Source: a virus
Taxonomy: Duplodnaviria; Heunggongvirae; Uroviricota; Caudoviricetes
IMG/VR virus record: IMGVR_UViG_3300032782_000004
Strand: one strand, 5' to 3'
DNA: 64,000 nt
Shown here: positions 100 to 60,533 of the stretch, in pieces
How positions within the stretch are numbered: the first letter of the stretch is position 1
Layout of the letters: the number at the start of each line of letters is the position of its first letter
The notes under the pieces: model-generated
The model's database searches: none
The model's input: only the letters and a program-made list of their open reading frames with translations
What the model was told of the DNA's origin: nothing
Program-made: the position numbers and the translations under genes

Positions 100-3000
100 T
101 CATGCGACTACCTGGAACACGGCCCCGTTGTGCCCTGCTACACCGGCCGCGCCGCCCAGTCCCGAACCTGCGGCACCGCCGGCCACGTTGAGCGTTGGAA
201 ATGCCGTGAAGAACGGCGGCAAAAAAGCTGTTTGCGCACTGGTCAAAACGATCAATCCGCCGCCGCCGCCGCCTCCGCCGCCACCGCCAGGACCGCTTCC
301 AGCAGAGCCGGTCGCGTTGCCTCCGGCGCCTCCGACTGCACTGATCGTCCCTGAACCGGTAATTATGGGCGACGCGATCAGCACTACGCCTCCGCCTCCG
401 CCGCCGCCGCCGCCGGAGCTTGTTCCGCCACCCCCGCTGGTTCCGCCTCCGCCCCCGCCGCCGCCCCCGCCACCAGCGACTTGATTGATCCCAACACCAA
501 ATAGCGTCCCGGTCGAGGATCCCATGGCGGCGAAAAGCGAACCGCCGCTAGCGATGCCCGGCCCATACGTTCCAGCGGATCCGCCGGCTGCGAGACCCGT
601 ACCGCCGGCACCGCCGTTACAGAACCCGGGTGCGTAAGGGGCCATCGGCGCGTACACCGCATTGGCCGGCGACACGCTTGAAGCTGGGTGTCCTACGGCT
701 GTGACAGCGCCGCCAGCACCGCCCGGCGCGCCAGCGAGCAGCGTCCCGCCGCCACCGCCCGATCCTGCTGTGGCGCCGGATCCTGCTGTGCCTGAATTAT
801 CTACAGTGCCGTTGATGGTAGCCGATACGTTCGCGTAGATCCTGTATCCATTCGATTGAATACGAACGGTCGAATCTAGAAGCAGTGAAGTGGCGTACAG
901 ATCTCTGTTCAAAACATATATTGCATCGACCGGTACTATGCCGGCCACAGTCGACGTGCCATCGAAGTGCAACGCGAGATCAGCGCCGTTACCGTACCAT
1001 CCGTAAGATATTTGAGGGCCTGTCCCGATTTGCTGGCATACCCAATCGAGTGCCTCCATCTCGGCGACCACGAACCCATTAGTCCCCGGGGGTAGAGTCG
1101 CTATCACAGTGCCGGCATTGTTCTTGACTTCCAAGAAATACGGCGCCGCGTCCCCTCTTACGATCTGTAGCGTGTCTCCGAAGCGTTCCCCGCCACCGGT
1201 TTTGATCGTTACCGCGAGGTTGTTGGTGAGCCCCGCAGAGGGCGTCAAATACTGATTGCCTGAGTTTCCTCCTGTGTAACCGCCACTGGCGCCGGTGCCA
1301 TTGAGCGACACGCTTACCGATCCGGTAGAAGGCAACGTTGCACCCACTACCGGTGCGGCGGTTACACCGCCGACGATCAAGACAATAGTCGAGGCGCTGC
1401 GCGTGCCGCCGGTCTCCAAGAAACTGGACCATGACGGTCCGTCGAACGTAGCTGTCGCAGCCGTTAGTGCGGTGGCTTTCAAAAATTGACAGTTGCTGAA
1501 CACTGCCAATTGGTTGACTGAAATGGAATTGGTGTTGAGCTTAGTACCGAGCGCGCTAAGCGTTTGCGCTGTAAGCGATCCTCCAGAGAATACCGACGTG
1601 TACATGTAAACGGCGGCGTTAGACGCCCCCGCTCCGGCAGTGACGTTGCCGAAGATCGTGACGTTCGTGAAATACACTAAAGCGAGTTTGGAAGTCGTAT
1701 GCGAATCGAATGCGCCGAGTATCCCGCCCGAAGCGGCACCGACTTCATCACCGCCAAATATCACAGAGGAGGTCGGTGCTCCGGCGTCGTCGGTTACAGT
1801 GAAATTTCCTGTTACGGTGATGTTATGTACAGCTACGACCGCTGAGGAACCGGCATGGGCTCCCGCCGCGTTGTTCCACGTCAAGCTGCCGGATATGACC
1901 GTCCCGCCCGAGTTTGAGATAGAATCGCCGCGGAGCTCCGTCGAAGCGTACGGTGGGAATGAGACGCTCTCGACGTAGCCGTTCGTCGAGGGCATCATCC
2001 AACCGACATAGTTGGCGGCCGCATCGGCTGCGGAAGCGTTGGTCCGCGATGCGATAAACGATGCGATGGTCGCGTACGGTTGAGCGGCGGAGCCGTTGTG
2101 CACGGTCGATGTCGTGTCGCCGTCGATGAACCGCTGACGGGACAGCGGCAACGCGCCAGGGCCCGTCGCACCGGTGGCGCCAGGATTACCTGCCGCGCCG
2201 GTCGCGCCGATTGCACCGGTCGGACCTGTACGTCCCGTCGACCCGGTCGCGCCAGTCGCCCCGACGCCGCCAGCGGCACCGGCCGCACCTGTAGGCCCTG
2301 TCGCACCGGCGACACCTGCGGCGCCCGCGGCTCCCGTAGGACCGGTCGCGCCCCCACTACCCGCGGGACCGGTTCGTCCGGTAGCCCCAGTCGCGCCGGC
2401 CGCTCCGGCGCTCCCAGTCGGACCGGTCACGCCGGCGGTGCCGGCGGCTCCGGTCGGTCCGGTACTTCCACCGCTTCCGGCAGCTCCCGTCGGGCCCGTA
2501 ACACCGGCCGCGCCAGCGCTCCCCGTCGGACCGGTTCGCCCCGTCGCGCCAGTCGGCCCGGTTGATCCCGTTGCACTTGCCGCCCCAGGCGCGCCCGTCG
2601 CACCGGTCGGTCCCGTAGCGCTCGCGCCGGTAGCTCCCGTCGCGCCTCCGGCGCCGGTCGGTCCGGTATTTCCAGTCGATCCGCTGCCGGCGGCCCCCGT
2701 AGCGCCGGTTGCGCCGGTTGCCCCACCTACTCCCGCTGCGCCCGTCGCGCCGGTCGTGCCAACGGGGCCAGTCGGTCCGGTTCCGAGCGGCCCTGTCGGA
2801 CCGGTAGGCCCAGTCGCGCCTGCGCCCGTCGATCCAGTGGCGCCGGTAGGCCCAGAGCCCCCGACCGATCCTGTCGGTCCGGTGCTCCCGGTTGGGCCCG
2901 TTCCGAGGGGACCAGTTGGGCCGGTTGATCCGGTGTTCGCGGCGGCGCCCGCCGGACCGGTAAATCCCGTCGGTCCGGTGTACCCCGTCACGCCTGTCGC

Positions 3001-3684
3001 ACCGGTATTCGCCGCCGCACCTGCGGGCCCAGTGCTGCCGGTCGGTCCCGTCGAACCTGTACCGCCGGTGCTACCTGTTGGGCCCGTCCCGATCGCGCCG
3101 GTGGGCCCGGTCACGCCGGCGGGCCCCGTCGATCCGGTGCTTCCAGAAGCGCCCACAGAGCCTGTGGGCCCACTGGCTCCGGTTGAACCGGCCGGTCCGG
3201 CGCTCCCCGTCGGGCCGGTCGCGACGGCGCCGGTGGCACCGATCGGCCCCGTTGCGCCGGTGCTACCGGTAGGGCCCGTACCGATCGGACCGGTCGCTCC
3301 GGTAGGTCCAGTTGATCCAGTGTTCGCGGCGGCGCCGGCTGGGCCGGTCTGCCCCGTAGCGCCGGTAGGCCCCGTCGATCCGGTATTCGCAGCAGTCCCG
3401 GCCGGGCCTGTTTGCCCGGGCGCGCCCGTCGGCCCCGATGCGCCGGTCACACCCGTCGCGCCGGCAGCTCCTGTTGCTCCGGTTGATCCGCTCCCGGTGG
3501 GGCCCGTCACGCCGGCGATACCGGGGGCCCCTGTCGGCCCCGTCGATCCGGTCGGGCCGCCTACGGGGCCAGTCGGTCCGGTTGGGCCCGTAGCCCCGGT
3601 GATGCCCGTGCTTCCGCCGCCCCCGCCGCTTTTACCGGGCTCTGGATAAGTCTCACCCCGTATTCTGCCGGCGATGCGGGCCAT
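100..3684 (-). CDS. collagen-like tail fiber/tailspike protein with beta-helix domain and poly-Gly C-terminus
   Basis: 1194-aa ORF. The N-terminal ~600 aa are uninterrupted Gly-X-Y triplets ([13 protein letters not shown]...). The central region has beta-helix-like repeats ([22 protein letters not shown]). The C-terminus is poly-Gly. A GGAAGAGGA RBS-like sequence lies upstream of the ATG at 3682-3684. Confidence 0.6.
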
Positions 3685-4692: not shown

Positions 4693-5832
4693 CTACTTTC
4701 GCTTCTTCCTGTGAGCGCTCTTGCTCTTGCGCGGCGCTGCTCTGCGAATGGTTGTCGTTCGCGTTGTCGTACGCTTGCTGCCCGCGGCGACCGCGATCAC
4801 GCCGATGATCGCCGCGATCCCGAGCGAACCGGCAACGATCGCGCCCGTCGACAGACCCGTCGACTGTGGAGGTGTGACAGTCGGTTGAGCTGACGGCGCA
4901 GTCGTTGGGATCGGAAGCGTCGCGGTTGGCGCCGTTGACGGCAGTGGGATCACCGACGGGAGCGACGCGGGCGTTGGAAGAGCTGTCGGAATAGACGGGA
5001 GCGATGGGAGCGATGGCAACGGCGCCGCCGGCGTCGGGAGAGGTGCCGGAGACGGAAGAGGGGCAGGCAGCGGCAGCGGCAACGCGCCTCCGCCCATGCA
5101 GTTGCTCTGTCCCGTCGGCGTCCACCACGCCGGGCGTGGGCTGCACCCCGCCGGCGCACTCGGAACGAACTTCTGGAGAGCAGCGGCCGTCGCGGGGCCG
5201 TACTTGCCGTCCGCGGTAACGCCGAGCGCTAGTTGCGCGGCGCATACCAGCGCGACGTTGGCCGGATTGCACGGATCAATCGAAGCGAGCGCTTGCGCGG
5301 CCGCTGGAACCGCAACCGGCGTCACCGTCGGAATCGTCGGCAGCGACGGAAGAGCTGTCGGGAGCGAAGGCAAAATTGACGGGAGCGAAGGCAACGCCGG
5401 CGCGGGAGCAGATCCCACCGCCGCCGCCCAAGTCTTCGGCCCGACGATACCGTCCGCATCGAGGCCGTGAGCCGCTTGCCACGACTTCGTCGCTGCTTGC
5501 GTGTTCGGCCCGAATAAGCCGTCGGCCGTCACGCCGATGATGGTTTGCCACAACGCGACGTCCGCGTCCGCGACATGCGGGCCGGGATTGGTGATGCTGA
5601 TCTGCTTGTGGGGCGCGTTGAGCGGTGCCGGTGCGATAGCGCCGACGAATCCGACGCCGGCAGCGCTCGGGACGTTGAGCGCTTCGCCGCGACTGATCGA
5701 TTGCCACGTGCGCACGCCTGCGACCATCTTGGTCGGTTTTTGCGGGTTTGCGTTGATGAGCGAGCTCATCGGAACGCCGAACCTGCGGGCGATCATCGTC
5801 GGGCTTTCGCCCGCTCTTACGGAATAGCGCAT
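4693..5832 (-). CDS. LysM + peptidoglycan-binding (PG_binding_1-like) protein with Pro-rich linker and C-terminal TM anchor plus poly-basic tail
   Basis: N-terminus YSVRAGESPTMIARRFGV...LINANP is a LysM-like fold. ADGLFGPNTQAATKSWQAAHGLDADGIVGPKTWAAA is a PG-binding repeat. Pro-rich PLPSLPS linker. C-terminal hydrophobic segment IVAGSLGIAAIIGVIAVAA followed by a KRK-rich tail. Confidence 0.6.
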   Translation of the reverse strand: MRYSVRAGESPTMIARRFGVPMSSLINANPQKPTKMVAGVRTWQSISRGEALNVPSAAGVGFVGAIAPAPLNAPHKQISITNPGPHVADADVALWQTIIGVTADGLFGPNTQAATKSWQAAHGLDADGIVGPKTWAAAVGSAPAPALPSLPSILPSLPTALPSLPTIPTVTPVAVPAAAQALASIDPCNPANVALVCAAQLALGVTADGKYGPATAAALQKFVPSAPAGCSPRPAWWTPTGQSNCMGGGALPLPLPAPLPSPAPLPTPAAPLPSLPSLPSIPTALPTPASLPSVIPLPSTAPTATLPIPTTAPSAQPTVTPPQSTGLSTGAIVAGSLGIAAIIGVIAVAAGSKRTTTRTTTIRRAAPRKSKSAHRKKRK

Positions 5833-6674
5833 CAGCGTCTCCTTCTACGTCGACCCTTCCCGCCCTTCGAGGCGGCGAAAACGATTCCGCCGATTCCGGC
5901 GACGAGCGCCGAACCGATCAGCACCTTCTTGGTCATCGGCGTCATCATCGACGCGGCCGCGACCGTGGGAGCGGGTTGCACTTGGCAGTACTGTTTGGTC
6001 GGATCGGGGAACGGCGTCGGAAAATCCGCCGGGTGCATCCCCGCGATCATGATGAGCGCGCACAACGTGTCTTCGTCGAAGGCGCCATCGGTGCGCAGCG
6101 TCTTGCTCGGGCTCACCATCTGCTGCGCACTGGGGCCGTAATTGTTGTTGTACCAAGCCTGAAAGCAACCGGCTTCCAAGTTGATGGCCGGGCCCCACGT
6201 CGGGCACGGAGCGTTCCCATTCGCGATGATCTTGGCGTTGAGCGTGTTGAGCGAAGTCGTAACCCACGTCTGTTGTGCGAGGGATAGCAACGCCCAGATG
6301 TCCGGATCTCCCGGACCGCCGAGCGCGAATCCGAGCGCCCTCGCGCCGCCGAACGAGATCTGTTCCCCGAGGACTCCTTGTGCATGTTGCATGGCAAGCG
6401 TTCCTTTGCAGCCGGAACATCCTGGATGTGCCAGCGCTCTCTGTTGAACATGGAGGCAATCCGCGGCGCGCAGCCCCTCGTCGGTTGGGCCTTGTACCGG
6501 GACGTCGGTGACAAAATTCGGATGCCCGTACGCTTGCGCGGGGGTCACGGGAACCTCGGGATCGGCACCGCAATCAGTGGCTGTTGTGGCAGTACCGAAG
6601 GTACAGCACCCACAACTCCGCCCACGCCGGCGACTACTCTTGCTCCGATGCGGCTCATGGGAACCTCGTGCCAC
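5832..6674 (-). CDS. Cys-rich tail-anchored membrane protein (C-terminal TM + RRRRRR)
   Basis: 280-aa ORF with many Cys. C-terminal hydrophobic helix LIGSALVAGIGGIVFAA followed by GGKGRRRRRR. Start overlaps the stop of the upstream gene. Confidence 0.4.
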   Translation of the reverse strand: MARGSHEPHRSKSSRRRGRSCGCCTFGTATTATDCGADPEVPVTPAQAYGHPNFVTDVPVQGPTDEGLRAADCLHVQQRALAHPGCSGCKGTLAMQHAQGVLGEQISFGGARALGFALGGPGDPDIWALLSLAQQTWVTTSLNTLNAKIIANGNAPCPTWGPAINLEAGCFQAWYNNNYGPSAQQMVSPSKTLRTDGAFDEDTLCALIMIAGMHPADFPTPFPDPTKQYCQVQPAPTVAAASMMTPMTKKVLIGSALVAGIGGIVFAASKGGKGRRRRRR

Positions 6675-7028
6675 TTACGCCGGAAGAGTCCACTTTAGGG
6701 CACTCATTCGAGGTAAAAATGGCCGCAATCAGACCGCCGGCTAGCGATGCGCCAAGAACTGCGCCGGCAATTGGATGTTTTTTCGATACGGCTGATAGTG
6801 CGGCGCCGCCTATCGCTGAAGCAACTCCACCGCCAGCCGCAAGACCAATCCGTGTCGGCAGAAGCTGAGAATCAATTCTGGCTTGATCTTCTTTGGAATT
6901 AAGCAGGCCGCACATGAATCCGGTATCGAACATGCTGTTGATCACCGCGCTGCCTATTGTTGCTCCGACAAGAGCTGCTGTTTTGCTATCGAACAGCGCG
7001 CCCAAACCACCTAGCATCGCAATGCTAG
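6655..7028 (-). CDS. glycine-zipper small membrane protein
   Basis: Internal ATG at 7026-7028 of ORF 6655..7653. Product MLGGLGALFDSKTAALVGATIGSAV...GGGVASAIGGAALSAV is rich in GxxxG motifs. The upstream part of the listed ORF is Arg-rich junk in a region that is open in many frames. Confidence 0.35.
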
Positions 7029-7100
7029 CTGCTGCTCCGACAGCGGCTCTTGCGCGATCTCTCGCTGGAGGCACTGATGTGATCTGTTCTCCGAGAAAAG

Positions 7101-12321: not shown

Positions 12322-13503
12322 CTACTTGATGCTCGGATAAAGCAGATCGAGGAGCGTTGGAGCTCGAGCGAGTCCCGTTTGATCGGGCGCGCCGCTCATT
12401 CCGACGAAATCACCCTCGCCACGCTCTTTCGCTTCTTGTCCCGGCTCTACCCACCATTCGCGCGCGTGCGGCGGGACCCGCCCGATCGGCAGCTTCGTCG
12501 TGCCGTCCATTTTCACCCAGTCGCCGAGCTCGTCTTCGAAGGCGATGAACACGTGCGACGGCACGTCGTAGGGCTCGTGGTGACTGCTGCCGATGATCAT
12601 CGCGGCGATTCCGATCGACATCATCGCTGCGGCAAGTGTGATGGACATATCGTCGCAGTTGGAGACGGTTACGTCATGCTCTGGCAAATAGACGTAGCGA
12701 TCATCGGTCGAAATGTCCCAGCAAGAAACTCGTCCGACAGAACGTTCGATCGCCTTGACGGCGGCAGATGTGCCTAGCTTCTCTCGTTGCCCGATACGCC
12801 ACAGCGGAAACTTCCCCGCGCCGCCGTGCTCCATGCTAGTCGCTATGCGTTTTGGTTGAAGCAGGACATCGCCTTCACGAAGCTCCTCGACGAGAATTCG
12901 ATCGAAACTTTCTAGACGCTTGTACGCGGGTTGACATTGGACTTGATCGCAGCGGCCACCGTGCTTGCACTGGCCCACGTAGACCTTGTGGTTTTTCGTC
13001 AAATAGACGGTCGAACCGGTAGTGAGGTCGATCGCATCTACGTCAAGTTTACCCTTCGCCCATTTTTGCGTGATGGTCGACCATCGGTCTTTACCCCAGA
13101 TGCGTTCGCCTACTTTGATTTTCTCGATCGGAACGAATTCGAAGTCATCTCGAAGTAAAAGCGTCCTTTCCGGAAAACAGTCGCCGCCGATGATGCAAAG
13201 TCCACCCTCGTCGAGGCACAACGTCTGTTCGGGCGTTGCCATGAACTCGCCCATCATCGGATCGGCGATGTACGGCACTTTCTGCCTGAACGCGTCGAGT
13301 ATGGCTTGCGCTTTCTCGCGGTGCCCTTTCCGCGAAGCGCCGGCCTTGTCGAGGACCTGCGTCACCCAAGCACGGAGTCGCGGGCTCATGCGCCCCTTGA
13401 ACGCGCGCTCGGCGACTTCCTTCAAAGACAGCTTCGCGCCTTTGCCTCCAGCCGGATGCGGACGAGTATCGGTGCGTACGTTCTCTACGGGTTTGTCGAT
13501 CAT
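12322..13503 (-). CDS. transglutaminase-like cysteine peptidase interrupted by a mini-intein (Hint domain)
   Basis: ATG at 13501-13503 overlaps (ATGA) the stop of the 13500..14597 gene. After excising residues 103-282 the product reads ...EGGL-CDDMSITLAAAMMSIGI, i.e. a G-x-C-x-D-x-S TGase catalytic motif. Downstream HVFIAFE...GDWVKMD matches the His/Asp motifs. The listed 737-aa ORF upstream of 13503 is an out-of-frame artefact. Confidence 0.55.
   Translation of the reverse strand: MIDKPVENVRTDTRPHPAGGKGAKLSLKEVAERAFKGRMSPRLRAWVTQVLDKAGASRKGHREKAQAILDAFRQKVPYIADPMMGEFMATPEQTLCLDEGGLCIIGGDCFPERTLLLRDDFEFVPIEKIKVGERIWGKDRWSTITQKWAKGKLDVDAIDLTTGSTVYLTKNHKVYVGQCKHGGRCDQVQCQPAYKRLESFDRILVEELREGDVLLQPKRIATSMEHGGAGKFPLWRIGQREKLGTSAAVKAIERSVGRVSCWDISTDDRYVYLPEHDVTVSNCDDMSITLAAAMMSIGIAAMIIGSSHHEPYDVPSHVFIAFEDELGDWVKMDGTTKLPIGRVPPHAREWWVEPGQEAKERGEGDFVGMSGAPDQTGLARAPTLLDLLYPSIK
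12658..13197 (-). other. mini-intein (Hint domain, no endonuclease) inserted at the catalytic Cys of the TGase-like peptidase
   Basis: Begins Cys (CIIGGDCFPERTLL). Contains a TxxH-like block (VYLTKNHKVYV). Ends ...VYLPEHDVTVSN followed by +1 Cys. About 180 aa. Confidence 0.45.
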
Positions 13504-14597
13504 CGTCGTTTTCGTTTTCGCTTGCGTGTAGCGAGATAGACGACGCCGCCGAGTGCGCCGGCTCCAATCAATCCGATGCTCGCCACCGCGGCGGTGCTGA
13601 GTTCCGTTTTTTGCGGCGGCTTCACGGCTACGAGGGGCGGGGGCGCTTGAGGGGGCAGTGCGTTCGGCAGCGTTGACGGTAGCGGCGCATGCGTCGCGCA
13701 CGCGGCGGGCGCGGGCGCTCCGAGCACCTTCGTGAGCGCGGTTGCCGTCGCCTGCTCGTAATTGCCGGTATCGACGGGGACAGCGGGGGTTTGCGACGAA
13801 TTCCACGCCGTCTTGAACGCGTGCACGGTCGTGTTGACGAGTGTTCCTGATTGCGCGACCGATTGGCAGTAGTTCGGATCGGCGCCAATGGCGCTGGCCG
13901 CCGCTTGCGCGGTAGTCGAGATGTTCCACGGGAACGTGTCGGTGCTCGCCGGGAGCGGCTGTTCGCCCGCGTCGCCGTAGAACGCTTGAAGCGCGACGCG
14001 CGCGCTCGCGATCGCGGACGACAGCGAATTTTGCACATCGAGGCGCGCTTGAGTCACCGCCGTCTGATCGCCGGCTGTGATCGCCGCGATCAAATCGGTG
14101 TTGCGCTTGAGAGCCGTTGCGGTGCGATTTTGCACGTCTTCCGCGCTCGCCGTCGCGACGGTGTTGGATCCGCTGGCGGCTTCCTTGACGGAGGCGTCGA
14201 TGGTCGTGACGGTGTCCGGCACCGCCGCCGCAAACGATTGATCGTCCATGGACGAAAGCGTCCCGACCAGCATCGTCGATTGATCGAGCGTCGCGTAGTC
14301 GCCGAGGATCCCCGCTGCCGCGGCGCCGAGCATCGACGGCGTCACGCCGTCGGCGTATGGAAGTGCTACGAAATACGCTTTGGGGCGCATGTCGAGGCTG
14401 CCATCGAACCACTTCGACGGCAGATTCAGCGTCTCGCCGGCGACGAGCGACTTGAAAGAAGCAAAACCGTTCGGATAGACGACCGATCCCTTGTGCGGAT
14501 TCGCGTGCACCAGATCGATGGCGCACTTCGGGCATCCGGCAAATTCGATTGCGATCTTTGCCGGGCTGTCGCCGGGCCGAACGACGTACGATCTCAT
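13500..14597 (-). CDS. LysM-like N-terminal domain protein with C-terminal TM anchor and KRKRKRR tail
   Basis: N-terminus YVVRPGDSPAKIAIEF...DLVHANP...LVAGETLNLP is LysM-like. C-terminus IGLIGAGALGGVVYLATRKRKRKRR. Paralogous architecture to 4693..5832. Confidence 0.5.
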   Translation of the reverse strand: MRSYVVRPGDSPAKIAIEFAGCPKCAIDLVHANPHKGSVVYPNGFASFKSLVAGETLNLPSKWFDGSLDMRPKAYFVALPYADGVTPSMLGAAAAGILGDYATLDQSTMLVGTLSSMDDQSFAAAVPDTVTTIDASVKEAASGSNTVATASAEDVQNRTATALKRNTDLIAAITAGDQTAVTQARLDVQNSLSSAIASARVALQAFYGDAGEQPLPASTDTFPWNISTTAQAAASAIGADPNYCQSVAQSGTLVNTTVHAFKTAWNSSQTPAVPVDTGNYEQATATALTKVLGAPAPAACATHAPLPSTLPNALPPQAPPPLVAVKPPQKTELSTAAVASIGLIGAGALGGVVYLATRKRKRKRR

Positions 14598-39802: not shown

Positions 39803-40344
39803 CTGATGATCGTCATCCGTCACGGCGTCTTCTACGAGAAAAGCCCCACCGACGTCTTCGCCTCCGAGGGGGTTTGACGATCGCCATCCGTCACAGCGTC
39901 TCCCGCGAGTCGTGAATTCGGCGAGATGGGCGGCGTCAAACGTGGTCTGACGATCGCCATCCGTCACAGCGTCTCCCGCGAGCGCGGGAACGCCGCCGTA
40001 TTCGGCCCCGCACAGGATCTGACGATCGCCATCCGTCACAGCGTCTCCCGCGAGCACGCAAGCGAAAACGAAAACGACGATGATCGACACTGACGATCGC
40101 CATCCGTCACAGCGTCTCCCGCGAGGTTGCGAATCTCCATTGAGATTGTTGGAGATGGAGCTACTGACGATCGCCATCCGTCACAGCGTCTCCCGCGAGT
40201 CGGGGGGCTTGCGGCGCGAGGAGGACCCGTCCTTCGCTGACGATCGCCATCCGTCACAGCGTCTCCCGCGAGCGCGGGAACGCCGCCGTATTCGGCCCCG
40301 CACAGGATCTGACGATCGCCATCCGTCACAGCGTCTCCCGCGAG
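39803..40344. CRISPR. CRISPR array: eight 36-bp repeats (first degenerate) with seven 35-38-bp spacers. Further decayed repeat remnants at 39726-39761 and ~39611-39650.
   Basis: Repeat CTGACGATCGCCATCCGTCACAGCGTCTCCCGCGAG at 39874, 39947, 40019, 40090, 40164, 40237 and 40309; degenerate copy at 39803. Spacers at 39839-39873, 39910-39946, 39983-40018, 40055-40089, 40126-40163, 40200-40236 and 40273-40308. Repeat decay toward low coordinates implies the leader lies on the cas-gene side, so transcription is probably on the minus strand. Confidence 0.85.
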
Positions 40345-42203
40345 GCGTCGTGTAGAAAGCCGCTGACTTCGACCTCTTGCACGTCGCTTTGCGAGCGGTT
40401 CCCCTCATCGGCTAGGGAACGAGCCGTATCTCCACGGAATTGCGGGGAACCGTTCTTTGCGGCACCGAGCCGCTCGATCTCTGAGACAGGCGTCGTGATG
40501 GATGAAGATCGGCCACGCTGAACGTGGCGCTCCGGGGGATCCCCGGTTGCCGGACCGATACGGGGCCGTGAGGGAGAGTTGCCTCGCCCTCCGTGCCGTC
40601 CGTTTGTCACGGCCGTTGTCCCCCTTTCGGGGGGTTTCGAACCCGCGCTCCGCGGGCCCGCTTCGCCGGTATCGCTACCGGAAGAGTATTGTAAAAGGTT
40701 TGCCGCGGCGTTGTCGTCACGGTCGTCGATGTGCTCGCAAGAAGGGCACTGGAAATTCGGATATCCAGGCGAAGTCTCGCGCACGGTTAGGCACAACGCG
40801 CAGCGCTTTGTTACCGGCTCGTCTTGAGGCGCTTCCTCGAGACGGCCGCCGATCCATTTCATCTTATAAGCCACACGACGGCGAACATCGCCCATACGCG
40901 CGGCGTGGACCATCGGCGCCAAGCGATTGCGCGTTTGGGCGTCGTTCGTGAGGTTGCGCGAGAGCATAGAATGCACCGAACCGGCTGGGCGCATGCGTAC
41001 GATTTCGACGCCGGTGTCGACAATCTGCCGAACGCTCTTGCCTACGATGTCGTCTCGAAGATCGGTGATCCGCGCGTGATAGTGCGCAACGCGCCGCTTG
41101 GCTTCGAAAAAACCGGCGCTCTGGGCACGCGTCGCAATGCCCGCTCGATAGCGTCGCGCCATCCGACGCTCCCACAGCTTTCGGAGACGCTCGAACCGCG
41201 CGATGCGATCGTCGTCGCGGAGGCCAAGATGGCGGATGTTCGTCGAGCGTTCGCCTTGCGTCGCGACGGATAGGTTCACGACGCCGACCTCGACTCCAGC
41301 CACTCGGCCTTTCACGCGCGGTACCGGACGATCTCGCAGAGCGCGACCGGGCCCTCGTGCTTGCGGCGTCGGATCGGGTACTTCCGCTCGTAGCGCGATG
41401 TACCAGCGGCCGTCTCTCTCTGAGAGACCGAGAGCGATCGCTTTGCCGCCGTAGGGAAAGTGATGCGATTTCTCTTGCGTGACGGGCAAGTAATCACGCT
41501 CTTTCAAGACAACTTCGCCGATCCCCGGGATCGTCACGGTCCGTGACGTGATGCGGATCGGGTTCGGCTGGTCAACGTGGTAAGCCGCGTGTCGCCGGCC
41601 GCGAAAACGGGGGCGTCCCGCGCGCTCGTACCGCCCGGCTTTGATATGTTCGAAGAAATGCTTCCAGCCGTCCTCGACGTCGATAACGGCTTCGCGAATC
41701 GCGAACGAGGAGAGCTCGGTGAGCCAGCCGAACCGCTCCGGCTGTTCGTCGCGTACGAAGGCGACCTGGGAATACCAGTCGATCGACGTGGCGGCAAAAT
41801 CCGGGATCGCAGCGCCGGATGCGGGCCGGTAACGCACACGCTTTTGCGGCGTCCAGGCGACCGACGCGTGTTGACCAAAAAGCGCCAAAAGCCCGACGAC
41901 GACGGCGGCGCCGAGAGTCACCTGCGGCGCATCCTGCTCGATACGAGGCGTACGGACGTCGACCGGCGCGCCACGAGTGAGCGCAGCCAAAGCGTAGCCG
42001 AGCATGCACGCCGCTTCGCCGCCGGCGCAGTCATGTCCGGCGAGAGCGCGCGCGCCGCGCGCAATGCCGCGAGCGGCGTCGAGCTCGATCCAACGCTCGA
42101 GTACCCAGTTGTGCGCGACGCGAGCGCCAGCGACGTGTTTCGCGAGCGCACGCCGCTGTTCAGCGGTCGGATCAATCTCGGTCTTGTACGCGCGAAGGAT
42201 CAT
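40326..42203 (-). CDS. TnpB/Cas12-like RuvC-domain RNA-guided effector (compact type V CRISPR effector candidate)
   Basis: N-terminus MILRAYKTEIDPTAEQRRALAKHVAGARVAHNWVLERW is typical of OrfB_IS605/TnpB. RuvC-I-like GVEVGVVNLSVAT (Glu in place of Asp), RuvC-II-like TGVEIVRM, zinc finger CALC...CPSC, RuvC-III DDRDDNAAANL. ~130-aa low-complexity C-terminal tail. The ORF terminates inside the leader-proximal CRISPR repeat. Confidence 0.7.
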   Translation of the reverse strand: MILRAYKTEIDPTAEQRRALAKHVAGARVAHNWVLERWIELDAARGIARGARALAGHDCAGGEAACMLGYALAALTRGAPVDVRTPRIEQDAPQVTLGAAVVVGLLALFGQHASVAWTPQKRVRYRPASGAAIPDFAATSIDWYSQVAFVRDEQPERFGWLTELSSFAIREAVIDVEDGWKHFFEHIKAGRYERAGRPRFRGRRHAAYHVDQPNPIRITSRTVTIPGIGEVVLKERDYLPVTQEKSHHFPYGGKAIALGLSERDGRWYIALRAEVPDPTPQARGPGRALRDRPVPRVKGRVAGVEVGVVNLSVATQGERSTNIRHLGLRDDDRIARFERLRKLWERRMARRYRAGIATRAQSAGFFEAKRRVAHYHARITDLRDDIVGKSVRQIVDTGVEIVRMRPAGSVHSMLSRNLTNDAQTRNRLAPMVHAARMGDVRRRVAYKMKWIGGRLEEAPQDEPVTKRCALCLTVRETSPGYPNFQCPSCEHIDDRDDNAAANLLQYSSGSDTGEAGPRSAGSKPPERGTTAVTNGRHGGRGNSPSRPRIGPATGDPPERHVQRGRSSSITTPVSEIERLGAAKNGSPQFRGDTARSLADEGNRSQSDVQEVEVSGFLHDASRETL

Positions 42204-58637: not shown

Positions 58638-60533
58638 ATGCCGCAGGATGCGTCCGCGCTGGAGCGCGAGCCGTACGATCGCGTGTTGGTATTAGGCCAG
58701 CCGCATCACGGCAAAATGTTGCCGAATTCCGAACCTGTGCTTACGCCTACAGGTTGGAAACCGATGGGCCGCCTGATCGTCGGCGAATACGTGATTGGAT
58801 CTAACGGGTACCCGACAAAAGTCGTTGCCGTGTACCCGCACGACCACAAGCCGATCGTCAGGCTGACAATGGATTGTGGTGCGACAGCGCGTTGTGGCCT
58901 CGAGCATCTCTGGTTCACGACTACTCGCCACGAATTGCGACGCGGTAGTCGACGGTACCCTCCAGGCACGCCACATCACATGCGCGGTACGGTAAAGCAA
59001 GAGTTTGTGGGTTGGGGTGAAGGAAGCGTCAAGACAACCCAAGAGCTGATCGAGACGCTCGACGCACGTCACTATATACCGCGAGTCGCACCTATCATGT
59101 ATGCGGACGTGGAGCTCCCGCTCGATCCATATTTGCTCGGGCTCGTTTTAGGTGACGGCTCGATAACAGGTAGCGGGCAGATTACACTCACGAAACCGGA
59201 CGAAGACATACTCGACGCCTTCGAACGTGAGGTCAGAGCTGTAGGCGACACGCCTGTACGCTATGATAACACCAAGTGCAACTACGTTCGTGTGAACGGC
59301 ACGAATCTAAAGAAGTGTTTGAATGCGCTCAACTTGTACGGAGCACGTTCGTCGACGAAATTCATACCGGAAATATTCTTGCGAGCGCCGCCTAAAGCGC
59401 GCCTCGCGCTGTTGCGTGGTCTCTGTGATACCGATGGGCATGCTGTCAAGAACATCTGTAGCGTTGGTCACGCGCACGACGGTTTGAGCCTAACGGCTGA
59501 GTTCTCGACGACATCGGAGCGACTTTGCGATGGCGTTATCGAATTAGCGCGTTCGCTCGGCAGCCGTGCGAGGGCGCGCTACAAACCGGAGCCGTACTCT
59601 CAAAGCGGCCCCGGACAACCGGCTTGGTGCGTGGACATCTCTTTTGAAGACGGCACATGTCCATTTTCTCTCCCGCGAAAAGCAAATCTGTGGGTTGGCG
59701 GTGATCGTGAAAAGCTCTACCGCCAACGGCTCGAGAAGATCGAGCCGGCAGGCGAAGAGGAATGCACGTGTATTACAGTCGAAGCTGAAGACGGGTTGTT
59801 CGTAACTAACAACTACATCTTGACACACAATTCGACAAGTGTGGTCGCTAGTGCTGCCAAAGCATTCGGTATGGGCTACGTGATCAACTGCGGGAAAAAA
59901 ACGGGGCTCCTCGAGGCCGCTCGTCGATGCGACCGCTTCAAATGGGATCTCGTTCGCGACGAGGTTCAAATGGAGGACGCGCTCAAAGAAGCGCGTCGAG
60001 GCTCCAAAGACGGCGTTTACAAATGGGTCGCCATCGACGATTACAACCTCTACGCGAGCTGGCTTGAGGTCGCGCTCGAAGATCAAACGCGCAACGCCAA
60101 AGGCGAAGCCGACGGGCGCCGCTTTTGGCGCGAGTACCGAAAGCGGCTCGTAAACATCCTCGTTCGATGCTTCGACATCAAAGCGCATTTCTATTGCATC
60201 TCACATTACATCGAGACGGGCGGCGGCCTCATCGACGGCCAGACCGAGAAGGTTGGCGTCGACGTCGCGCCGCTTTTCGGCGGCGCCGCGCGCAAGGAAA
60301 TCCCCGGCATGTTCGCCGATATCGTGTTTATGGCGCCAAGCTCGAAGAGCCAAAAAGAGCGCAGCTTTTACATCAACCCGATCGGCGTCTACGGCCCGAG
60401 CTGTCTGAGCTTGCCTGAAACGCGCGAGATCGACGCCGACGTCGGCGCGCTCCACGACGCTTTCATGAAAGCCGGCAAATCCGGCAAGTCAGAGAATCAA
60501 AACACCGGCAAGCCCGGCTATCACAGGAAGTGA
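58638..60533 (+). CDS. AAA_24 (Sak4-like) RecA-fold ATPase interrupted in its P-loop by an intein carrying a LAGLIDADG homing endonuclease
   Basis: N-extein ...RVLVLGQPHHGK and C-extein STSVVASAAKAFGMGYVINCGKKTG...YKWVAIDDYNLY splice to a canonical Walker A GQPHHGKST plus a hhhhDD Walker B. Followed by a DUF669-like gene, as in Sak4 modules. Confidence 0.6.
   Translation: MPQDASALEREPYDRVLVLGQPHHGKMLPNSEPVLTPTGWKPMGRLIVGEYVIGSNGYPTKVVAVYPHDHKPIVRLTMDCGATARCGLEHLWFTTTRHELRRGSRRYPPGTPHHMRGTVKQEFVGWGEGSVKTTQELIETLDARHYIPRVAPIMYADVELPLDPYLLGLVLGDGSITGSGQITLTKPDEDILDAFEREVRAVGDTPVRYDNTKCNYVRVNGTNLKKCLNALNLYGARSSTKFIPEIFLRAPPKARLALLRGLCDTDGHAVKNICSVGHAHDGLSLTAEFSTTSERLCDGVIELARSLGSRARARYKPEPYSQSGPGQPAWCVDISFEDGTCPFSLPRKANLWVGGDREKLYRQRLEKIEPAGEEECTCITVEAEDGLFVTNNYILTHNSTSVVASAAKAFGMGYVINCGKKTGLLEAARRCDRFKWDLVRDEVQMEDALKEARRGSKDGVYKWVAIDDYNLYASWLEVALEDQTRNAKGEADGRRFWREYRKRLVNILVRCFDIKAHFYCISHYIETGGGLIDGQTEKVGVDVAPLFGGAARKEIPGMFADIVFMAPSSKSQKERSFYINPIGVYGPSCLSLPETREIDADVGALHDAFMKAGKSGKSENQNTGKPGYHRK
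58716..59831 (+). other. intein (372 aa) with LAGLIDADG endonuclease; class-3-like features
   Basis: Block A-like MLPNSEPVLTPTGW. Block B ...CGLEHLW (Trp at B12). LAGLIDADG motifs LLGLVLGDGSI and LALLRGLCDTDGH. Block F ECTCITV (Cys at F4). Block G ILTHN followed by +1 Ser. Position 1 is Met. Confidence 0.55.

Follow-up and report, generated by a model that had tools for sequence, protein, structure and literature searches.

The stretch of DNA analyzed here (64,000 nt, hereafter the window) is a fragment of a phage genome, and one of its genes very probably encodes a transglutaminase-like enzyme that is interrupted by a 174-aa class-1 mini-intein between Asp108 and Cys283. We infer splicing and its chemistry from the sequence, from its relatives and from structural models. 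The original prediction of a mini-intein in a transglutaminase-like gene was borne out by the HINT fold of the insert, its class-1 residues, the existence of empty alleles and the presence of endonuclease-bearing relatives at the same site.

The interrupted gene is surrounded by uncharacterised genes and lies upstream of those for the tail fibre and for lysis (Table 1). Its open reading frame contains no frameshift and no internal stop, and its ATG overlaps the stop of the 365-aa gene located upstream by 4 nt. An identical precursor protein (P0001) was found on eight contigs of up to 91 kb from several samples, as predicted by the JGI and ENA gene callers. The base composition of the intein (GC 53%, GC3 59%) differs from that of the exteins (GC 62%, GC3 75%), and the low GC3 of the intein is consistent with a foreign origin.

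Table 1. Features of the interrupted gene and of neighbouring genes in the window.
Feature	Position	Strand	Description
Precursor gene	12322..13503	-	393 codons and stop
N-extein	13180..13503	-	Residues 1-108, ending ...CLDEGGLCIIGGD; from alignments with intein-less homologues and with the DNA of the empty allele
Predicted class-1 mini-intein	12658..13179	-	Residues 109-282, CFPERT...HDVTVSN, 174 aa, 522 bp
Intein Cys1 (Cys109)	13177..13179	-	Predicted nucleophile of the N-S acyl shift
Block B, T-K-N-H (T169, H172)	12988..12999	-	From conservation in 183 copies
Cys/His cluster, C179-x-H181-x3-C185-x4-C190	12934..12969	-	Just after block B
Endonuclease-deletion scar, A221/T222	12838..12843	-	From alignment with the ~328-aa relatives
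Blocks F and G, C261-W-D263 ... L-P-E-H276-D-V-T-V-S281-N282	12658..12723	-	
C-extein	12325..12657	-	Residues 283-393, first residue Cys283
Cys283	12655..12657	-	Predicted +1 splice nucleophile and predicted catalytic Cys
His317	12553..12555	-	Predicted triad partner
Asp333	12505..12507	-	Predicted triad partner
Collagen-like tail fibre	100..3684		
Endolysin-like peptidoglycan-binding protein	4693..5832		

We searched for the identity of the insert using profiles and structural models. Among the profiles, which had been proposed as a check of the intein, the Pfam Hint profile matched the insert (E = 5.7e-5; 23.2 bits) below its gathering cut-off of 29.7 bits, and searches of NCBIfam with the precursor, intein and extein returned no useful match. 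When compared to the sequences of the PDB, the intein yielded only matches of E ~1, to Prp8 inteins (phmmer), and the profile of the extein found nothing relevant, so that a comparison of folds was required for both parts. The intein was modeled with AlphaFold2 from 28 homologues (pLDDT 87.4; pTM 0.81). All of the top 50 Foldseek matches of this model in the PDB were inteins, BIL domains or hedgehog Hint domains. The best matches were the Prp8 intein (E = 5.7e-7) and the Ssp DnaB, Mtu RecA, gp41-1 and Npu DnaB/DnaE inteins, with target-normalised TM-scores of up to 0.82.

The residues expected for splicing are conserved across the relatives of the insert. Position 1 is a Cys in 145 of 145 representative copies, as in 100% of a set of 183 copies, and block A (C-F-P-x-G-T-L-L-L) begins at the position of Cys109 in the same 145 copies. 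Over the 183 copies, block B contains the Thr in 94% and the His in 100% of cases, and D263 and T266 of block F are both found in 100%. The initial Cys and the TxxH block that had been anticipated are both present, as Cys109 and TKNH. The +1 Cys is found in 148 of 148 copies and in 100% of the 183. The last residue of the intein is Asn in 113 of the 148 copies and Gln in the other 35 (24%), the window copy ending with Asn282. The penultimate position (block G:6), where class-1 inteins commonly but not obligatorily present a His, is occupied by Ser281 in the window copy. This Ser had been correctly read in the original prediction, where it was contrasted with the common His; it is the usual residue of the family rather than an oddity of the window copy (Ser in 129 of 148 copies, or 87%; His in 13; other residues in 6) and is 90% conserved over the 183 copies. 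At the usual position of the block-F His (DDHYVYL in most relatives), the window copy carries Arg269, as does a full-size relative (P0002), and His276 is common across the wider family without being universal.

By its splicing residues and modeled fold, the insert is predicted to be a class-1 intein. A class-3 intein was rejected, since the window copy has Cys1 and carries Asp263 at the block-F position (Cys261 is located two residues earlier). The intein also carries a Cys/His cluster after block B, which is almost invariant in close relatives. A similar C-x(1-2)-H...C-x-C pattern turns up in distant copies, and the shortest mini-inteins lack the cluster. This cluster may represent a zinc knuckle, perhaps an element of DNA recognition by the endonuclease or a metal-sensitive element.

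The relatives of the intein form 324 clusters at 50% identity, as determined by an exhaustive HMMER search. This exhaustive search was needed, as a word-indexed search of proteins for the intein by itself gave just two fragments. One relative is labeled "Hint domain-containing protein" by the NCBI pipeline. Both junctions were located in the 150 best copies of the 324 clusters, and all 150 are inserted at the same site (...G-D/C-[FLI]-...-[N/Q]/C-D-D...). Among the 120 best homologues of the host protein, this site is empty in 70, occupied by a full-size intein in 30, by a mini-intein in 16 and by a partial intein in 4. Because empty, full-size and mini forms are all found at this one site, the pattern of insertion is not a chance one. 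Rather than being conserved in homologues as a non-splicing insertion, an outcome that the original prediction had set against itself, the segment is missing from these 70 homologues. A distant relative of 938 aa (P0187) contains two inteins in one protein, the first at an upstream site (KW/CLPAGT...VVVHN/CVP) and the second at G-D/C-D-D with a Gln end (TTSQ/CDD).

The full-size inserts are 261-334 aa long, mostly ~328 aa. Relative to the window copy, the ~328-aa relatives present one extra block of ~155 residues, located between the motifs QP[KE]RI[AD] and T[PS]..HGGAG. This block carries the LAGLIDADG-like motifs YVEALALADGW and LRGLMADST, and one full-size relative (P0010) matches LAGLIDADG_3 (PF14528). 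The window copy presents a clean deletion of the block at A221/T222, and the linker left at this position corresponds to residues 116-123 of the intein, where the model falls below a pLDDT of 50. In the other mini-inteins of the family, which measure 133-197 aa, the deletion ends at different points, which suggests that the endonuclease was lost repeatedly and independently. Since its homing endonuclease has been lost, the window copy is unable to home on its own and could now spread only by recombination or vertical descent.

It could be argued that splicing was lost together with the endonuclease, in which case the gene would be effectively inactivated, with a precursor that is non-functional or undergoes side cleavage only. 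The deletion of the endonuclease, the disorder of the deletion linker in the model, the penultimate Ser, the Arg at the block-F His position and the circulation of an intein-less allele among near-identical phages would all agree with such a decayed intein. However, the essential residues are all intact and 94-100% conserved over 183 copies, and a protein free of frameshifts and stops is found unchanged on the eight contigs. The penultimate Ser is the norm of the family, including the copies that bear an endonuclease, and Arg269 is shared with P0002. Moreover, natural mini-inteins commonly splice (PMC4031507). We therefore consider a decayed intein to be quite unlikely.

The insert might also be a Hint domain of another type, similar to BIL or hedgehog domains, which would cleave without ligation and release two polypeptides. 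BIL and hedgehog domains were indeed matched by Foldseek at E-values similar to those of inteins, and the sole Pfam match of the insert is to the generic Hint module. However, BIL domains lack a +1 nucleophile and are not found in conserved catalytic motifs (PMC4031507), whereas here the +1 Cys is invariant (148/148) and the insertion interrupts a conserved domain at its catalytic motif, on which grounds a BIL domain was rejected. The two flanks, once joined, constitute a contiguous conserved domain that is uninterrupted in 70 of the 120 homologues, and the LAGLIDADG endonuclease nested in the relatives is a hallmark of inteins. These observations make a non-splicing Hint domain highly improbable and favor a splicing class-1 mini-intein.

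The boundaries of the mini-intein were defined using intein-less homologues and an empty allele. At the insertion site, the alignment of intein-less homologues reads ...CLDEGGLC[IFV][IV]GGD/CD[DE].... The hexapeptide CIIGGD belongs to the host protein, because C-[IFV]-[IV]-G-G-D is found ahead of the catalytic Cys in all of these homologues. The empty allele (P0039) encodes a protein of 219 aa, identical to the predicted spliced product except at one residue (I105V). It is located in a syntenic contig of 89.9 kb from a sister phage (L002), which is 98.98% identical to the window over 10.3 kb upstream of the gene and 99.5% identical over 5.6 kb downstream. The alignment of the two sequences across the gene contains a single gap of exactly 522 bp, corresponding to codons 109-282, and the junction of the empty allele reads ...GGD/CDD... 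(...GGCGGCGAC/TGCGACGAT...). At the level of sequence, this gap is decisive for the boundaries of the insert. The original prediction, which had placed the insert at residues 103-282 with a length of ~180 aa and a spliced motif G-G-L-C-D-D, must be corrected accordingly: the insert starts at Cys109 (CFPERT), as indicated by both the homologues and the DNA gap, its length is 174 aa as given by the gap, and the junction reads G-G-D-C-D-D, as in the intein-less homologues. Although Cys103 is invariant too and a product spliced from it would score 27.7 bits on Transglut_core, above the 24.8 bits obtained with the junction at Cys109, this boundary is refuted by the C-[IFV]-[IV]-G-G-D kept in all intein-less homologues, by the start of the gap at codon 109 and by the position of block A in all 145 copies. 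When the gene was spliced in silico, it differed from the empty allele at six nucleotides, three of which are found in the last 43 nt before the junction (Poisson P ~0.007). This clustering fits a possible tract of co-conversion without constituting a proof of it.

The host protein belongs to the transglutaminase-like proteins. The Transglut_core profile of Pfam (PF01841; cut-off of 23 bits) scored 18.1 bits on the precursor and 24.8 bits on both the spliced product and the natural empty allele. Pfam thus misses the host domain in the precursor because the intein hides it until removed. JGI labels many of the homologues without an intein as transglutaminase-like putative cysteine proteases, and "peptidase" is used here as the label of the family for what remains a putative enzyme. 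The extein was modeled with moderate confidence (pLDDT 68) and presents a papain-like core fold, with lower-scoring matches to arylamine N-acetyltransferases, PNGase, TG2/TG3, LapG and the pseudomurein endoisopeptidases PeiW/PeiP. Both of the motifs that had been pointed out downstream, HVFIAF with its His and WVKMD with its Asp, are found in the C-extein, and Cys283, the +1 residue, is the Cys of a G-x-C motif at the N-terminal end of the core helix, in agreement with its predicted role as the catalytic Cys. C283, H317 and D333 do not vary among 43 intein-less homologues; in the model, they map to the expected helix and strands. They constitute a predicted Cys-His-Asp triad.

Searches in reference collections yielded few relatives of the host protein. 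We found no match in PHROGs for the extein or its four neighbours, and none with tblastn between the precursor and 50,697 deposited phage records. A scan of species-representative genomes identified a single MAG contig, which is short (5.8 kb) and belongs to Candidatus Binatia. Many of the hosts of this intein family (P0123-P0272) are 500-1000 aa long, with a transglutaminase-like domain near the N-terminus and a long low-complexity C-terminal tail that ends in a hydrophobic, membrane-like segment. The 219-aa phage protein is thus the minimal form of a much more varied family.

We propose that the mini-intein splices through the class-1 pathway. Cys109 would first undergo an N-S acyl shift at the Asp108-Cys109 bond, helped by Thr169 and His172 of block B. 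The thiol of Cys283 would then attack the thioester, yielding a branched intermediate by trans-thioesterification. Asn282 would cyclise without the help of a penultimate His and free an intein of 19.9 kDa, and an S-N shift would finally establish the Asp108-Cys283 peptide bond. The 43.7-kDa precursor would be converted into a product of 219 aa and 23.9 kDa with a contiguous G-G-D-C-D-D motif. As a point against splicing, an Asp at position -1, the place of Asp108 here, is reported to favor N-terminal cleavage in some engineered inteins. The mini-intein itself would originate from an intein of ~328 aa with a nested LAGLIDADG homing endonuclease aimed at this one site, followed by an internal deletion.

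The precursor should be inactive, because the insert keeps the N-terminal half of the domain apart from the catalytic Cys. This raises the idea that the intein acts as a conditional, zymogen-like switch of the transglutaminase-like enzyme, given that the +1 nucleophile is also the predicted catalytic Cys and that the extra Cys261 and the C-x-H-x3-C-x4-C cluster are conserved. We regard such a switch as speculative and rather unlikely. If true, redox- or zinc-sensitive splicing could delay the activation of a potentially harmful protease or cross-linker until a given stage of infection or until export.

We then compared this system to those described in the literature. As in other class-1 mini-inteins (the Ssp and Npu DnaB inteins, the splicing domain of Mtu RecA and fungal Prp8), the HINT fold comes without an endonuclease domain, and Cys1, TxxH, the block-F Asp, the terminal Asn, Cys+1 and an in-frame insertion in an active site are all found here. 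In contrast to these inteins, whose hosts are involved in replication, repair or packaging, the host in the window is a transglutaminase-like enzyme. The window intein also differs from solved inteins by its low identity (10-19%), its penultimate Ser instead of His and its extra Cys/His cluster. Class-1 inteins of phages often lack the penultimate His and yet splice (Kelley et al. 2016, PMC5050341). The window intein resembles the mycobacteriophage inteins of that study by its non-canonical penultimate residue, its empty alleles in close phages and its LAGLIDADG relatives, but the penultimate residue is a Ser here and a Gly there. Active inteins with a Ser at G:6 have been documented, as have active ones with a C-terminal Gln (PMC4031507). 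The intein of Pyrococcus abyssi PolII ends with Gln, as do 24% of the copies of the family, whereas the window copy ends with Asn. The class-2 intein KlbA presents a Ser at G:6 like the window copy, which retains Cys1 and thus belongs to class 1.

The hosts listed in the mycobacteriophage survey (PMC5050341) are terminases, portal proteins, primases/helicases, RDF, thymidylate synthase, nucleotidyltransferases and similar proteins, and the term "transglutaminase" is absent from it. No transglutaminase-like host is mentioned in a large survey of inteins (PMC4760082) either, and a full-text search of the literature for inteins together with transglutaminase or transglutaminase-like proteins returned only unrelated papers on bioconjugation. 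Relative to the superfamily of transglutaminase-like cysteine proteases (PF01841; PDB 3isr and 3kd4, LapG, TglA and the virus-encoded PeiW/PeiP), the family of the window protein is small (219 aa) and specific to phages, and its motif is G-G-D-C-D-D. This kind of intein is well known, but the host family and the insertion site seem not to have been described.

Several other features of the phage genome were identified. The window also encodes a RadC-like protein, helicases/primase of the SNF2, Dda and VapE types and a PD-(D/E)XK nuclease. The 365-aa gene upstream of the precursor (13500..14597, minus strand) has a start that looks LysM-like by eye (YVVRPGDSPAKIAIEF...GETLNLP), and its product ends with a hydrophobic segment and a basic tail; it has no match in Pfam or PHROG. 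A second, putative full-size intein was detected in a 631-aa open reading frame (58638..60533, plus strand). It spans approximately positions 58716..59831 (~372 aa) and splits a Walker A motif as GQPHHGK/.../STS, its boundaries being inferred from this motif only. This second intein matches Pfam LAGLIDADG_3 (37 bits) and Hom_end, and it looks like a class-3 intein, with a Met instead of a Cys or Ser at position 1, a block-B H-L-W, a block-F C-I-T-V and a T-H-N end. Once spliced, the extein is similar to an AAA_24 ATPase, although its score (24.1 bits) falls short of the cut-off of 27. The assignment of this open reading frame to a terminase was rejected on account of this similarity and because the corresponding PHROG matches probably originate from the intein.

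The window further contains a gene for a 625-aa protein of the TnpB/IS605 OrfB type (40326..42203, minus strand), with HTH_OrfB_IS605 and Cas12f1-like TNB domains, which is predicted to be another mobile element inside the phage genome. Finally, a segment of ~540 bp differs between the window (~6560..7100) and the sister phage (L002, 15868..15882), with genes of 149, 37 and 238 aa in the window type and of 45 and 186 aa in the sister. This difference looks like the swap of a small gene cassette between phages that are otherwise 99% identical.

Our results add a host family and a site, the G-D/C-D-D motif of phage transglutaminase-like enzymes, to a catalogue of intein targets that is dominated by proteins of replication, repair and packaging. 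The specificity for this single site is strict across highly divergent transglutaminase-like proteins of 200-1000 aa. The penultimate Ser found across the family, together with 24% of Gln ends, and the conserved Cys/His cluster are further points of interest. The family is also a source of many natural Cys1/Cys+1 inteins for protein engineering, with a penultimate Ser and either Asn or Gln termini. With full-size, partly deleted, mini and empty alleles found side by side, it constitutes a compact natural example of the invasion of a gene by an intein, the decay of its endonuclease and its loss.
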